Source: Escherichia phage ECML-4. Taken from it: a stretch of DNA of 64,000 bases. The notes under the pieces were generated by a model, which did no database searches, was not told the origin of the DNA, and saw only the letters and a program-made list of their open reading frames with translations. The DNA lies in the sequence record JX128257, one strand, 5' to 3'. The position numbers were made by a program, and so were the translations under genes. Below are positions 11,436 to 14,690 of this stretch, piece after piece (the stretch's first letter is position 1; every line of letters begins with the position of its first letter).

Positions 11436-11525
11436 TTGGGAGAGTGCGTCGGGAATCGAACCCGAAACCGTCAGGACAATGAAAAGCTATTGCATTTCAC
11501 TTTGCATATCCTCCGGCTTTCTTAA
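11436..11525 (-). ncRNA. tRNA-like element (T-arm present, cloverleaf not resolved)
   Basis: Minus-sense CGGG-TTCGATT-CCCG T-arm-like motif, but no matching 7-bp acceptor stem and no encoded CCA. Confidence 0.25.
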
Positions 11526-11599
11526 CTTCCTTAACCCCAGATTGTTATGAAGTCGGCATGCACACCTTCTTCATCTTCAGGAAGTCACACTCATTGTTC

Positions 11600-11675
11600 T
11601 GGTTGCTTCAACTGGATTCGAACCAGTGACCTCTCCCTTATCAGGGGAACGCTCTACCTACTGAGCTATGAAGCA
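11600..11675 (-). tRNA. tRNA-Ile (anticodon GAT)
   Basis: Reverse complement folds as a cloverleaf: acceptor TGCTTCA/TGAAGCA, D-arm GCTC-AGTAGGTA-GAGC, anticodon arm TTCCC-CTGATAA-GGGAG, T-arm CACTGG-TTCGAAT-CCAGT; CCA encoded. Confidence 0.85.
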
Positions 11676-11678
11676 ATT

Positions 11679-11767
11679 TGGCGGAAGGTGAAGGATTCGA
11701 ACCTTCGGGGGCTAAAAGCCCCACTCGATTAGCAGTCGAGTCCCTTAAACCTCTCGGGCAACCTTCC
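11679..11767 (-). tRNA. tRNA-Ser (anticodon GCT), class II
   Basis: Acceptor GGAAGGT/ACCTTCC, anticodon arm CTCGA-CTGCTAA-TCGAG, long variable arm GGGGCTTTTAGCCCC, T-arm GAAGG-TTCGAAT-CCTTC; CCA encoded; 3 nt from tRNA-Ile. Confidence 0.8.
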
Positions 11768-12052
11768 GTATACTGCGCCTCGGTCAAGAATTTTCCAAGC
11801 CATGACCTAAATCTGGGTTCTTGACCTGACCGAGCGTAATTTGGACGGGCTTCACACCCGATTGTGCATTTGATCTGCCGTAGCCCAACTCCCCGCGCCG
11901 AAGCGCCGATTGGTTAACTGGCACCAGTGCCTTCTGGTTCGATCTCCTGTAACTTTACAGGCTTTGCGCCCGACCATTTCTGGAAGTTGAGGCATCGTTC
12001 CCGATGTGGAGTCCCCTCATTTTACACAGCTGGCTGCAACGCTTACTGTGTT

Positions 12053-12136
12053 TGGTGTGAGTGGATGGATTCGAACCACCGCGCTGTTACGGGGAGATTT
12101 ACAGTCTCCTGCATTCGACCGCTCTGCCACACTCAC
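12053..12136 (-). tRNA. tRNA-Tyr (anticodon GTA), long variable arm
   Basis: Acceptor GTGAGTG/CACTCAC, anticodon arm GGAGA-CTGTAAA-TCTCC, T-arm GGTGG-TTCGAAT-CCATC; CCA encoded. Confidence 0.75.
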
Positions 12137-12392
12137 ATTTGGTCTACCACCACGTGCTGGGCCACGCTCGAGGACATCGGCCATCCTTCCTCAGCTAATC
12201 CACGCGGCGGTAGATTTAGATCAGAGTGTACGGTGTAGCATTCCGCAGGGGTGCACCTACTGTAGCCCTTTCACTCTGAAATTGTATGAAGTAGGTCTCA
12301 CTCCCCTGGGTATCTGTATCCTGCAGCCTTACATTGGCAGCTATCGCGCGATTCGCACTTCCGAAGGCGCTTCGAGATACTCTACTTCAATT

Positions 12393-12468
12393 TGGCGACG
12401 ATGGCAGGACTTGAACCTGCGACATATGGATTAACAGTCCACCGTTCTACCGACTGAACTACATCGTC
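12393..12468 (-). tRNA. tRNA-Asn (anticodon GTT)
   Basis: Acceptor GACGATG/CATCGTC, D-arm AGTTCAGTCGGTAGAAC, anticodon loop CTGTTAA, T-arm GCAGG-TTCAAGT-CCTGC; CCA encoded. Confidence 0.85.
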
Positions 12469-12469
12469 A

Positions 12470-12694
12470 TTATCCGTGCTTGTTTGCTTCAATTGCCCTT
12501 AATTGAGCATCAGCGTCAGCTTTGGTGTCATGTGTCCCAAGAACCTTCGTCTTGGTGTGGTCAAGGACAACCCACTTGTCGCCTCGCTTTTCAACAAACT
12601 CAACAATCTCTTTGTTGTCGGTAGCGAGGCCATCCCACTCAGCAAGAAACTCACCGAACGTTTTCATCATACTCACCAATTGTTTATTGAACAA
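12470..12694 (-). CDS. small hypothetical protein (74 aa) embedded in the tRNA island
   Basis: ORF between tRNA-Asn and tRNA-Met on the same strand; charged, soluble-looking sequence. Confidence 0.4.
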   Translation of the reverse strand: MFNKQLVSMMKTFGEFLAEWDGLATDNKEIVEFVEKRGDKWVVLDHTKTKVLGTHDTKADADAQLRAIEANKHG

Positions 12695-12787
12695 CTGGTT
12701 TATTTAGGTGCTCCCGAGGCGGTATTTTAATCCCGCGATCCCATCTCGCCTGCCGTAGACCAGAGCATGCTGACAGTCCAACATATT

Positions 12788-12863
12788 TGGTGACCCTGGC
12801 TGGACTTGAACCAGCGACCAATCGATTATGAGTCGACTGCTCTAACCACTGAGCTACGGGGCC
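12788..12863 (-). tRNA. tRNA-Met (anticodon CAT; initiator, elongator or Ile2 not distinguished)
   Basis: Acceptor GGCCCCG/CAGGGTC (one C-A mismatch), D-arm GCTC-AGTGGTTA-GAGC, anticodon arm GTCGA-CTCATAA-TCGAT, T-arm GCTGG-TTCAAGT-CCAGC; CCA encoded. Confidence 0.8.
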
Positions 12864-12971
12864 AAAATTGGCGGGGTCTGAGGCTTTTCACCTCACCTGC
12901 TGGATTGGCCTCCAGCTGTTCTCTCTGGGGACTCGCTGTCCGGACAGCTATCCCTTAAACTATCGCCCCTT

Positions 12972-13085
12972 AATTCATATTGCTGTGGGTAATACCAAAG
13001 CGGAGGTTTGGAATCTCTCGCCCTATAGCGACCTTTAAACCGTTTGATCAGTCCGATCCAAAGGACTACCCACAGCAATATGAAT
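12972..13085. ncRNA. long perfect hairpin (20-bp stem, 74-nt loop); candidate structured RNA or RNase III site
   Basis: AATTCATATTGCTGTGGGTA at 12972-12991 is exactly complementary to TACCCACAGCAATATGAATT at 13066-13085. Confidence 0.4.
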
Positions 13086-13292
13086 TTGTTGTGTCCAATC
13101 AAGGACTGTCAACCTTTTATCCCGTTTGTGCATGATCAGTTCATGCAGGCCTCTTTGTGCGCCTCACGGCAACGCGCTTCTGTAGGTCATTGACTTGCAC
13201 CGTAGTCTCACCACAGGCGTTTATTTTTCCAGGGCTTTCCACTTACAAGTCTTAACCAGATCGGGATACGGGCTTGTAAGATCAGATTGGAC

Positions 13293-13371
13293 ACAACTTT
13301 GATGGCTCTAGGACTAAAGATCCCGCGTCACCCATAGACTTGGTTTATAAAATCTAGAGCCATCAAAGTTG
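13293..13371. ncRNA. long perfect hairpin (about 18-bp stem, about 41-nt loop)
   Basis: CAACTTTGATGGCTCTAG at 13294-13311 pairs with CTAGAGCCATCAAAGTTG at 13353-13370. Confidence 0.4.
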
Positions 13372-13745
13372 CAACCAATGTCGCAACTCGCACTTCAGCG
13401 TCTTCGTCTCGCTTCAGCACTTGTCCTCTACGCTCGGACCAAACGAGGCTGGCCGACAGAAACATGACACCACTCATCACTAGAGCGAGGATGTGGTTGA
13501 TAGCCACGATGCTATATCTCTGTCGCAGAGTGATCACACTTGTCAGGATGATCACTGTTTTGCGAACTTGAAAATACTGCGCCTGTCTCGGGTTTCCCCT
13601 TAGTTCGGCCTCTCATTGTTCGTCTAGTCAGGGAGCTACCCTTGATGACCAGCTTATTTTGAGATCTTCGCCAGCACCCACTAGTGTCTAGAATATGTAG
13701 GTGTCGAGGTCTGCAAGGCATTGCCCTATTTCATACAACGCTCTC

Positions 13746-13892
13746 TCAAGTACGCAAATCGAAGTTCTCTGGGCTTAACAGGTTCGACCCAACATGTTGT
13801 ATATCGCCTAACTTGCTCATGGGACGGACACATCTGTGTACAGACCTTGAGGGTTAAAAGATATACCCAGAGAACTTCGATTTGCGTAGCCC
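13746..13892. ncRNA. long perfect hairpin (23-bp stem, about 90-nt loop) nested in a weaker outer inverted repeat
   Basis: TACGCAAATCGAAGTTCTCTGGG near 13749-13771 pairs with CCCAGAGAACTTCGATTTGCGTA near 13867-13889; outer GGCATTGCCCTA / TAGGGCATTACTGCC near 13712 and 13980. Confidence 0.4.
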
Positions 13893-14062
13893 TTCACTTG
13901 CCAAAGATCAGGGCTAATAACAAGACTTCGCTCACATCTTTGAGGGCACTCAGTGTACAACAGGCTCCGATATTTCATAGGGCATTACTGCCTCGGATTT
14001 AAGTTGCCTTTCTCCTGAAACTCCATGCAGTCTCGCGTCTGACGCGGAATGCCCTCAAAGAT

Positions 14063-14290
14063 GTGGAGCCGTTTTAGGGAGTCGAACCCAAATGCTTGGC
14101 CAGCGCTGACCTTACATCCCATCTGACTTAGGCAACCCACCTCTGCTTACTCAGGAGCTTATCCCCTTTGGACAGTCAGATATAACGGCTTTGGGATTGG
14201 AGGAAGGACTCGAACCTTCTCATGTACGCTCCTGATTTCTCAGAAGTAGCCTGCTCCCATCGACCTATTAAGTACACGCTCCGCTCATTG
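14063..14290 (-). ncRNA. two tRNA-like remnants (T-arm plus acceptor-like 3-prime ends, no canonical cloverleaf)
   Basis: Minus-sense GGG-TTCGACT-CCC (around 14080-14095) and GAAGG-TTCGAGT-CCTTC ... CCA (14196-14225); upstream sequence does not give standard D or anticodon arms. Confidence 0.25.
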
Positions 14291-14477
14291 TTCGGCGGGA
14301 GCTTATTAATCACACCCTCCCGCCTATTGTTAGTGCGCCGAATTTTGTTATGAGGAATCGGAAGACCTCACTGGTGTATGGCTATTAAGCTACTGCCAGG
14401 AACGTGTTATCATTAGCGATTATTTTTGTGGTCAGTTTCTAAAAACCCGCAAAGTCACGCACAACGAAAACGAAAAC

Positions 14478-14542
14478 CTGTTTGAGTCCTAAACCTACCT
14501 GTCTTGGTCTCACATCGCTATGAGTGGCCAGGACTCAAACAG
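14478..14542. ncRNA. hairpin (13-bp stem, about 40-nt loop)
   Basis: CTGTTTGAGTCCT pairs with AGGACTCAAACAG. Confidence 0.3.
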
Positions 14543-14603
14543 CTTGCCGTTCAGTGAGTTAACTATACTTTGTAACCCGTTATTGATAAAACCTTTTATT
14601 TTT

Positions 14604-14690
14604 GTTGACGAGGGTGTGGAATCGAACCACACTTCTGAGCGCTGCCCCGTGTCACCAATGCACCACCTCACCATCGATTTGCCGGAACTT
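14604..14690 (-). ncRNA. tRNA-like element (T-arm TGTGG-TTCGATT-CCACA) without resolvable cloverleaf
   Basis: Strong T-arm signature on minus sense, but no complementary acceptor strand and no CCA. Confidence 0.25.

Follow-up and report, generated by a model that had tools for sequence, protein, structure and literature searches.

The closest described counterparts of the RNAs considered here are two RNAs of bacteriophage T4 and the TLD-only tmRNAs. The genes for two stable small RNAs of T4, RNA C (species 1 RNA, rnaC) and RNA D, lie next to a tRNA gene at the far end of the tRNA cluster and on the same strand as the tRNAs. RNA C, an expressed stable RNA of still unknown function, is 139 nt long and has a canonical T arm (CCGGG-UUCGAAU-CCCGG) beside its closing stem. 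TLD-only, or CDS-less, tmRNAs occur in mycobacteriophage DS6A, in jakobid mitochondria and in some plastids. The DS6A form is encoded by a phage; host tmRNA is inhibited by a similar TLD-only molecule, which perhaps titrates SmpB. In the tmRNA surveys consulted, phage tmRNAs are reported only for mycobacteriophages and Bacillus phage G, and our literature search returned nothing relevant on tRNA-like RNAs of Ackermannviridae, tmRNA-like phage RNAs or Kuttervirus transcriptomes.

The DNA analysed here, referred to as the window, is a stretch of 64,000 nucleotides from Escherichia phage ECML-4 (JX128257), a Vi01-like Kuttervirus (Ackermannviridae). A preliminary description of this sequence had reported strong minus-sense T-arm signatures at four sites at which no standard tRNA could be folded. 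In our analysis these sites correspond to four tRNA-like elements, A to D, which share an RNA island with canonical tRNA genes and a further element, X, absent from that description:

Intrinsic terminator: 11356..11378, minus strand, 9-bp stem and T run about 60 nt past the 3' end of A
Element A: 11437..11592, minus strand, 156-nt tRNA-like RNA (first site)
tRNA-Ile: 11600-11675, minus strand, canonical, CCA-encoding (ARAGORN, Rfam)
tRNA-Ser: 11679-11767, minus strand, canonical, CCA-encoding (ARAGORN, Rfam)
tRNA-Tyr: 12053-12136, minus strand, canonical, CCA-encoding (ARAGORN, Rfam)
tRNA-Asn: 12393-12468, minus strand, canonical, CCA-encoding (ARAGORN, Rfam)
74-aa ORF: 12470-12694, among the tRNA genes
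tRNA-Met: 12788-12863, minus strand, canonical, CCA-encoding (ARAGORN, Rfam)
Element B: 14064..14189, minus strand, 126-nt tRNA-like RNA ending in CCA (second site)
Element C: 14192..14260, minus strand, 69-nt three-way junction ending in CCA (third site)
Element X: 14294..14479, minus strand, tmRNA-like mRNA/pseudoknot domain between D and C
Candidate sigma-70-like promoter: 14562..14589, minus strand, TTATCA-16-TATAGT, between D and X, a consensus match only
Element D: 14606..14672, minus strand, 67-nt near-cloverleaf (fourth site)

The exact motif GGTTCRANTCC is found nine times in the 64 kb, every copy being minus-strand and inside 11452-14628, with five copies in the canonical tRNAs and one at each of the four other sites. 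Allowing up to one mismatch raises the count to 19, where 8.25 +/- 2.9 would be expected; none of 100 shuffles reaches 19. The T-arm signatures are therefore real and non-random, as first described. The covariance-model search and canonical-tRNA check found five canonical tRNAs and none at the four sites, where cmscan gave no match to RF00005 even at E<=10. tRNA and tmRNA finders reject all four elements, the tmRNA models RF00023, RF01849, RF01850 and RF04321 give nothing at the gathering threshold, and ARAGORN makes no tmRNA call. Bacterial YrlA Y RNAs, which are linked to Ro/Rsr, carry a tRNA mimic inside a larger noncoding RNA, and the eukaryotic mascRNA/MALAT1 module is a non-decoding tRNA-like module that recruits tRNA-processing enzymes. 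Over 10800-16000, cmscan at E<=10 gave no match to the YrlA family, and no Rsr-type gene was seen near the RNA island.

The five tRNA genes and the 74-aa ORF are all situated between B and A. Elements A-D lie in an ORF-poor unit of about 3.2 kb that runs from the promoter-like site to the terminator, ahead of which A is the final gene. The spacing is of the tRNA-operon type, with 2 nt between the CCA of C and G1 of B and 8 nt between the CCA of tRNA-Ile and G1 of A. By its sequence, the promoter-like site is a candidate for the start of an X..A transcription unit, and siphophage homologues of X have TTGACA-17-TAGATT at the equivalent relative position. The neighbouring proteins match only unknown-function and tail-knob families in Pfam and PHROGs, which gives no clue to a role. 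The tRNA cluster is variable and subject to homing-endonuclease insertions; annotations of relatives include a neighbouring pseudo-tRNA with a possible 15-bp intron and place no feature over any of the four sites. Elements A-D are conserved over Kuttervirus, Agtrevirus and Taipeivirus. The sets carried by relatives differ, B being missing from the Det7, SKML-39 and EspM4VN loci examined and C being present in some Kuttervirus only, so each element is dispensable.

Element A folds into a four-way junction with a 7-bp acceptor stem (GAGUGUG/CGCACUC), two long arms, the T arm UCGGG-UUCGAUU-CCCGA and a 3' tail U-CCCA. The loop UGUGCAU of long arm I and GUGAAAUGCA in long arm II are invariant from Ackermannviridae through to phage-plasmids, and identity at A between genera is only about 72-78%. 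In the consensus structure 97.6% of cells are paired, with slid controls at no more than 54%, and compensatory change is seen in 10 of 37 pairs (15 of 35 when SSU5-like copies are added). The MFE is -51.5 kcal/mol (z = -3.1), and A alone among the four elements is significantly more stable than its shuffles. A covariance model of A matches only Ackermannviridae and SSU5-like loci, at 122-171 bits; in the SSU5-like phage-plasmids the A-type element lies directly downstream of X. A conserved ORF inside A was rejected, its reading frame being shifted by indels, and no conserved ORF was found in any of A-D.

Element B is closed by the acceptor stem GCCGUU(A)/(A)AACGGC and ends in discriminator U plus an encoded CCA. 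Its two long arms are accompanied by a weak T stem, with the loop UUCGACU, in which three G-C pairs (GGG/CCC) and a U-A pair flank a U-U mismatch. Its conservation is about 96-100% over the full 126 nt, exceeds that of the flanks and has sharp edges at G1 and CCA; mean column identity of the alignment is 94% with the divergent flanks included. The 11 variants are all near-identical, and B is too conserved to display compensatory changes, its consensus fold containing one-sided changes only (U-A to U-G). The MFE structure is the same four-way junction (z = -1.35, not significant). Homology of B to the 3' domain of the L022-class loci described below or to E. coli ssrA was considered and rejected (local alignment z <= 2.6, not significant).

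Element C, which lies about 34 nt downstream of the last pseudoknot of X, is the least secure of the four. Its closing stem pairs (AU)GGGAG with CUCC(AAU), followed by C-CCA; only GGAG/CUCC, that is 4 bp, is kept in variant phages, and an alternative register exists. A 7-bp hairpin with a GAAA tetraloop stands where the anticodon arm would be, the T arm is GAAGG-UUCGAGU-CCUUC, and there is a weak tRNA-Sec-like match (17.4 bits). Outside the T arm C is poorly conserved, and its folding energy is not significant (z = -0.7). In the variant at L060 and L114 the T stem is kept through an A-U to G-C change, and the hairpin is exchanged for a different one. Element D has a 7-bp acceptor stem (GGUGAGG/CCUCGUC), discriminator A with CCA not encoded, a D arm with the GG-containing loop AUUGGU, and a 6-bp T stem with the loop UUCGAUU; a stub hairpin of 3-4 bp takes the place of the anticodon arm. 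Pairing is kept in 99.5% of cells (slid controls <=59%), and three pairs, in the acceptor, D stem and T stem, show compensatory change, a number reached by 3 of 500 shuffles; the folding-energy z-score is not significant. In Vi01 another module has been swapped in at the position of D.

In all four elements, then, a closing stem of acceptor type stacks on a T arm (GTTCRANYC loop), with only 4 conserved bp in the closing stem of C, and the earlier statement that complementary 5' acceptor strands were missing does not hold. The sites first described were the 3' parts of longer elements with full extents 11592-11437, 14189-14064, 14260-14192 and 14672-14606, and the single acceptor-like strand with CCA that had been reported was an understatement, CCA being present in B and C and CCCA in A. 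The reported lack of a cloverleaf and of an anticodon arm is borne out by ARAGORN and Rfam, except that a D arm can be folded in D. The top half of a tRNA is kept. The anticodon arm with its 7-nt loop has given way to long conserved arms in A and B, to a tetraloop hairpin in C and to a stub in D. None has the G3:U70 alanine pair, position 3:70 being G-C in A, C-G in B, a G/A mismatch in C and U-G or C-G in D, so AlaRS charging, and hence true tmRNA-TLD behaviour, is not expected.

Element X is the mRNA-like half of a tmRNA minus the tRNA-like domain. It has a leader UUUUCG..GACUUUGCGGG, then the A-rich AAAAAUAAUC, and a tag ORF at 14417-14382 (GCU AAU GAU AAC ACG UUC CUG GCA GUA GCU UAA UAG) that reads ANDNTFLAVA followed by two stops. 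The GCU resume codon opens a 10-codon tag, the stops lie within a hairpin, two H-type pseudoknots follow, and there is neither an acceptor nor a T arm. As in tmRNA (SsrA), which exists in one-piece and in two-piece or permuted forms, an A-rich leader, a GCN resume codon, a tag of about 10 codons (AND...A[AV]A), stops in helix 5 and pseudoknots are present in this order; what sets the window apart from tmRNA is that its tRNA-like and mRNA-like parts belong to different genes, each self-closed. Four Rfam tmRNA models align the tag region of X, all below the threshold of 47, with best scores of 20.6 bits (window) and 36.2 bits (L017). All 137 copies of the X family have a 10-codon tag, AN[DE]xxx[LK]x[AV]A, ending in ..LAVA, ..LMAA or ..KVAA in place of the ..ALAA of tmRNA. 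Third-position entropy of the tag codons is 1.01 versus 0.57 and 0.44, and the stop may be TAA, TAG or TGA. In the X alignment 98.1% of cells are paired and 11 of 18 pairs show compensatory change (0 of 500 shuffles), and covariation supports the two pseudoknots.

A T-loop motif lies 120-500 nt downstream of X in about 43% of the 137 copies, the T-arm modules adjoining X in different phages comprising many unrelated sequences; most copies lack a recognisable TLD. At five IMG/VR loci X lies inside a standard-topology RNA in which a 5' GUU[GA]GCG pairs with a 3' CGUUAGC-U-CCA, a pairing that appears in the unconstrained MFE of four of the five; the conserved 3' motif of this domain occurs with 24 of the 137 copies. 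These candidate full-length forms are rejected by ARAGORN and Rfam. The leader of X also resembles the 5' strand of A (G.GUGCG[AG]CUU). In L091 and L143 the leader GAGUGAU is complementary at 7 of 7 positions to the 3' strand of an A-type element that also has a proximal 5' strand, GGGUGAU; L141 and L142 have the same A-type element and non-complementary leaders, and a standard-topology tmRNA with A as its 3' end was rejected on this ground. Generic pairing of a leader 7-mer with a 3' strand plus NCCA was rejected too, 61 of 117 loci giving a 7/7 match, which is about chance expectation, and only the L022 class, with the conserved 3' motif, was retained from this screen as a candidate. The idea that D supplies the acceptor part of a permuted tmRNA was likewise rejected, since its own covarying 5' strand closes it and no complementary strand follows it.

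Element A has the position of T4 RNA C together with its four-way junction and canonical T arm, and A and B share its two long arms. RNA C differs in a closing stem with two U-U mismatches and in lacking CCA. No sequence homology was detected; the model of A scores 21.0 bits on rnaC (E ~1e-3), no better than on ordinary tRNAs, with 21.9 bits on T4 tRNA-Leu and up to 34 bits on other tRNAs. No X-like element was found in the 68.0-74.0 kb stretch of T4 that was examined. With TLD-only tmRNAs A-D have in common an acceptor stem and T arm without a tag-coding region. They differ in lacking G3:U70 and in scoring below threshold with tmRNA models, A and B being larger with two extra conserved arms, and A co-occurs with the tmRNA-derived X.

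We put at roughly 60% the probability that the four sites are separate, selectively maintained genes for tRNA-shaped RNAs unable to decode, mimics of tRNA or of the tmRNA TLD. This reading is supported by the compensatory changes in closing and T stems across genera (A, D and the T stem of C), the clustered strand-specific motifs, the sharp edges of B, the tRNA-operon spacing, the promoter-like site upstream of X and the strong terminator after A, the occurrence of the A family beside X, the T-loop motifs downstream of about 43% of X copies, and the precedents of T4 RNA C and the DS6A TLD-only tmRNA. It accords with the general idea in the preliminary description of tRNA-like RNAs that are not tRNAs. 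The points against it are the non-significant z-scores of B, C and D, the lack of compensatory changes in B, the short stem of C with its alternative register, the absence of G3:U70, the non-significant similarity of A-D to E. coli ssrA and the patchy distribution of the elements among relatives. The sequence comparisons show that the elements exist and establish their boundaries, conservation, structure and linkage to X; how they are processed, how stable they are, what they bind and what they do is inferred. Elements A-D would be co-transcribed with the five real tRNAs and X as one RNA operon of about 3.2 kb. The acceptor/T-arm minihelix may act as the unit recognised by RNase P, 3' trimming, the CCA-adding enzyme and T-loop modification enzymes, so that the host tRNA-maturation machinery would excise A-D. 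Excision would also trim X and the neighbouring modules and probably yield stable tRNA-sized RNAs, which could occupy tRNA-binding factors without decoding. Judging from the association with X and from DS6A, the likeliest targets would be SmpB and the trans-translation apparatus, and by analogy with DS6A the elements may bind SmpB and inhibit host trans-translation.

In a tentative, somewhat doubtful account the island is a dismembered phage trans-translation system, the X tag being decoded, its tRNA-like domain lost, exchanged or moved, and A-D, especially A and B, being the detached partners. If so, the phage would re-tag stalled-ribosome products (..LAVA/..LMAA) or shut down host tmRNA-SmpB. 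It is unlikely that X and A-D form a split or permuted phage tmRNA, with X as tag template, C, B or A as ribosome entry and trans-translation of its own with the ..LAVA tag. The coding-type selection on the tag (10 codons in 137 of 137 copies, third-position variation, all three stops) implies decoding and thus the need for a tRNA-like entry domain, and the five standard-topology loci, the 3' motif in 24 copies and the likeness between the X leader and A's 5' strand are in keeping with this. However, every one of A-D has a 5' strand of its own that closes it, the L091/L143 complementarity does not hold in L141/L142, G3:U70 is absent, most X copies lack a recognisable TLD, the full-length forms fail ARAGORN and Rfam, and RNase P would be expected to cut X from a downstream tRNA-like element. 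The earlier proposal of tRNA-like 3' ends of longer RNAs is partly right, in that C and, in phage-plasmids, A-type elements follow X, although a local stem closes each element.

That A-D adjoin other RNAs with spacers of 2-8 nt, that unrelated T-arm modules stand beside X in different phages, that the module at D's position was swapped in Vi01 and that C is poorly conserved beyond its T arm would all fit pure punctuation, the elements being only RNase P and 3'-processing signals that divide the long transcript and define the ends of X and other modules, in the manner of mascRNA for MALAT1, and the released pieces functionless. We regard this as rather unlikely, since the invariant internal loops of A and the conservation of B throughout its length imply constraint far above the need of a processing signal. 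The kept tRNA elbow, which many enzymes recognise, would suit a role outside trans-translation, as decoys or sponges for tRNA-targeting nucleases of host defence or for enzymes that modify tRNA, and phage tRNAs have been proposed as a counter to tRNA-targeting host defences (PMC10264068). This is very unlikely: the anticodon loop, the target of known anticodon nucleases, is missing in all four, and no defence or anti-defence gene is linked, the neighbours being of unknown function or tail proteins. The earlier suggestions of decayed tRNA genes and of tRNA genes with insertions are not supported, and the elements can hardly be tRNA pseudogenes, or intron- or insertion-interrupted genes still spliced to working tRNAs. 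The variable cluster with its homing-endonuclease insertions, the pseudo-tRNA with a possible intron and the resemblance of D to a tRNA minus its anticodon arm speak for such readings; but conservation accompanied by compensatory substitutions extends across genera, B exceeds its flanks in conservation, taking out any segment still leaves no possible anticodon stem-loop, and the inserts fall short of the length of group I introns, of which the Rfam search found none.

On the reading of A-D as maintained non-decoding genes, annotation tools that accept only canonical cloverleaves leave conserved tRNA-shaped RNAs invisible. RNAs of this type would have been missed in roughly 150 sequenced Vi01-like therapeutic-candidate phages, in which the annotation of the region reads 'none' or gives spurious small ORFs, and their selected structures provide a comparative context for the 50-year-old orphan RNAs C and D of T4. 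From the linked X it would seem that many enterobacterial phages, both lytic and temperate, interfere with ribosome rescue through RNAs that the current tmRNA surveys omit. The X family, apparently undescribed, is a phage version of the tag-coding part of tmRNA that is widely shared. Without annotation it is present in Felixounavirus-like, Schitoviridae, sipho-, lambdoid and phage-plasmid genomes, and the searches gave a match in over 120 IMG/VR stretches, in 656 phage records and in 761 of 5426 E. coli genomes.

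The window derives from a Vi01-like myovirus (Kuttervirus, Ackermannviridae). It shares 97-98% identity with Vi01 and relatives over its first 25 kb, and 99.5% with Salmonella phage STML-13-1 over 11300-15400. The roughly 4 kb between a small conserved ORF (11075-11308) and the ORF at 15333-15902 contain a single credible small ORF. The genes of this RNA island are on the minus strand, including five canonical tRNAs (Ile, Ser, Tyr, Asn and Met, all within 11600-12863) identified by ARAGORN and at Rfam gathering thresholds. Our analysis shows that four further discrete, conserved RNAs with the form of a tRNA top half, elements A to D, make up one RNA operon with these tRNAs and with a tmRNA-like element, X. 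The features are as follows.

14672-14606, minus strand: element D, with acceptor stem GGUGAGG/CCUCGUC
14589-14562, minus strand: promoter-like site between D and X
14479-14294, minus strand: element X, with a tag template (ANDNTFLAVA and two stops), a helix-5-like hairpin and two pseudoknots
14260-14192, minus strand: element C, closed by a short stem and containing a hairpin capped by GAAA and a T arm, then C-CCA
14189-14064, minus strand: element B, with GCCGUU/AACGGC closing pairing, then U-CCA
12470-12694, minus strand: ORF of 74 aa (phrog_3684, unknown function) between tRNA-Met and tRNA-Asn, conserved in relatives in the same location
11592-11437, minus strand: element A, with GAGUGUG/CGCACUC closing pairing, then U-CCCA
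11378-11356, minus strand: strong terminator downstream of A

The preliminary description had noted T-arm signatures at four sites where no standard cloverleaf could be folded. The 64 kb contain nine exact copies of GGTTCRANTCC, always on the minus strand and within 11452-14628: five in the canonical tRNAs and four at these sites. Allowing one mismatch raises the count to 19 (8.25 expected), which 0 of 100 shuffles reach. None of the four sites matches a tRNA family in an Rfam search, even at E<=10. The motif counts and the absence of tRNA-family matches therefore confirm both the T-arm signatures and the missing cloverleaf. The 5' acceptor strand, which the preliminary description had failed to find, is in fact present: closing strands were found in A (GAGUGUG), B (GCCGUU) and D (GGUGAGG), and as a short stem in C.

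Element A has two long arms between its closing strands, followed by the T arm UCGGG-UUCGAUU-CCCGA, and its minimum free energy fold is a four-way junction (-51.5 kcal/mol, z = -3.1). In an alignment of ten phages from three genera, 97.6% of cells retain the consensus pairs and 10 of 37 pairs show two-sided changes, while the same structure slid along the alignment scores at most 54%. When copies from SSU5-like Klebsiella phage-plasmids are added, 15 of 35 pairs are changed on both sides, and in these copies arm I is preserved under wholly different sequence. Internally, UGUGCAU and GUGAAAUGCA are invariant motifs. In element D the D arm carries a GG loop, a stub stands in for the anticodon arm and the T stem has 6 bp; 99.5% of cells are paired, and three pairs are compensatory. 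Element B is predicted to fold into two long arms and a weak T stem. Its conservation in Kuttervirus and Taipeivirus starts at G1 and ends at CCA, the upstream flank being unalignable; its 11 variants are single substitutions apart, with no compensatory changes and a folding z of -1.35. Of the four, element C is the least securely established. In the variant carried by two relatives (L060 and L114) the T stem is kept through an A-U to G-C change, the hairpin is replaced by another and the closing stem is reduced to GGAG/CUCC.

None of the four elements is annotated in any relative inspected. In Vi01 the position of D is taken by a different T-arm element, and B or C is missing from some relatives; A to D therefore act as exchangeable modules. 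In Vi01-type phages the element in D's place reads ..CUGUCGGUUCGAAUCCGACCACCGCAAA.., and relatives have further non-tRNA T-arm elements that are missing from the window, such as GUUGGGGUUCGAAUCCCCUAACUCGUGCCA and UUGUGGGUUCAACUCCCACUCACCCAGCCCC (loci Vi01, approximately 8415-8424, L060 and L122). In two Ackermannviridae contigs from IMG/VR (L117 and L136) the final 14 nt of B (CUAAAACGGCUCCA) come immediately after the last pseudoknot of X, and in another locus (L085) the 5' end of B (GCCGUUAUAUC) does so. These recombinant junctions suggest module shuffling or deletion among X, C and B.

Element X contains AAAAAUAAUC followed by GCU AAU GAU AAC ACG UUC CUG GCA GUA GCU UAA UAG, encoding ANDNTFLAVA, which may be compared with ANDENYALAA, the tag of E. 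coli tmRNA. All 137 copies analysed encode a 10-residue tag of the form AN[DE]xxx[LK]x[AV]A ending in TAA, TAG or TGA, in 14 peptide variants and 29 nucleotide versions that differ mostly at third positions (entropy 1.01 vs 0.57 and 0.44). Pairing holds in 98.1% of cells across the hairpin with the stops, the two stems of the first pseudoknot and stem 1 of the second. Compensatory changes are seen at 11 of the 18 pairs; the values observed are equalled in 0 of 500 shuffles, and slid controls give at most 45%. Alignments of the tag region to four Rfam tmRNA models were obtained in five lineages, every score being below threshold (top score 36.2 bits vs 47), and X has no acceptor arm, T arm or ARAGORN call. 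It is apparently a tmRNA-derived, undescribed element.

In a BLAST search with the region from B to D, approximately 14332-14471 matches many unrelated phage groups, nearly always without annotation. X is found in the tRNA clusters of one Felixounavirus-like and one Schitoviridae phage, behind its own TTGACA-17-TAGATT promoter in siphophages, on Klebsiella phage-plasmids of about 110 kb (L141-L143), and in an E. coli lambdoid prophage (NZ_AP022095.1, 1503105-1503229) in the late-operon leader between the antiterminator Q and holin genes. Matches at E<=10 occur in 761 of 5426 complete E. coli genomes, 661 of the 811 matching places being on plasmids, and among the matches listed none overlies an annotated feature. 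X is shared, without annotation, by many enterobacterial phage groups that are unrelated to one another, and by prophages and phage-plasmids.

Five prophage-like IMG/VR contigs (L022, L064, L098, L101 and L113) hold candidate one-piece tmRNA-like RNAs of 308-452 nt, in the order GUU[GA]GCG, X, a variable insert, conserved UAACAACGGGCAU..GCCUUAGUAAAUCCC, a 7-bp hairpin lacking the T-loop consensus, and CGUUAGC-U-CCA. The two ends pair in four of the five unconstrained minimum free energy folds, and the conserved 3' motif of their 3' domain occurs in 24 of the 137 X copies. The candidates show no compensatory changes and no ARAGORN call, and B has no significant similarity either to ssrA or to their 3' domain. 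Another locus, L091, has a leader complementary to the A-type 3' strand, as a one-piece tmRNA would; this reading is rejected because the complementarity is not conserved in L141 and L142 and a proximal 5' strand exists.

A to D are real and belong to the kind "phage tRNA-like stable RNA". They lack G3:U70, a tag within the same molecule and passing tmRNA model scores, and are therefore not filed as tmRNA. The nearest known system in position and architecture is T4 RNA C (rnaC). In the tmRNA surveys consulted, phage tmRNAs are recorded only for mycobacteriophages and Bacillus phage G, mycobacteriophage DS6A being classed as "TLD only" (TLD, tRNA-like domain); a similar TLD-only molecule, as cited in these surveys, inhibits tmRNA, perhaps by titrating SmpB.

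Based on established tRNA biology, A to D would be excised by RNase P and 3'-end enzymes, a step that would also trim the neighbouring RNAs, and might then persist as tRNA or TLD mimics. The spacers resemble those of tRNA operons, with 2 nt from the CCA of C to G1 of B and 8 nt from that of tRNA-Ile to G1 of A. The T-arm elements are also linked to X in position: a T-loop motif lies 120-500 nt downstream of X in 59 of 137 copies, in many sequence classes, C starts about 34 nt past the last pseudoknot of X in the window, and SSU5-like elements have an A-type element after X, directly or past one stem-closed module. Trimming could be their whole purpose, and such pure punctuation is an alternative that we consider unlikely. 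Somewhat less probable still is a split trans-translation system with X as the partner of A to D. A role as defence decoys seems improbable. That the elements are pseudogenes is very improbable; decayed tRNA genes, one of the options first suggested, do not fit with recurrence across genera at only about 72-78% identity in A. With stable tRNA-like RNAs as the preferred reading, the presence of tmRNA-derived X beside them opens a possible role in ribosome rescue to testing.

Several relatives annotate the orthologue of tRNA-Ile (11600-11675) as tRNA-OTHER or pseudo-tRNA with a possible 15-bp intron (Det7, 5182-5270; L001, 801-889; L003, 805-890), and ARAGORN makes no call at these sites; the slot is therefore polymorphic. 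Other minus-strand island modules have long perfect closing stems (13935-14063, 13753-13885 and 13286-13379), one closed by CAUCUUUGAGGGCA / UGCCCUCAAAGAUG; two are long hairpins with spurious miRNA-like Rfam matches. Similar modules in other phages have recurring "closer" sequences, ACACAACAGGUAAGAGCAUUG / UGCUCUUUCCGUUGUGG, at their borders, and in some of these a T arm lies immediately beside the 3' closer.
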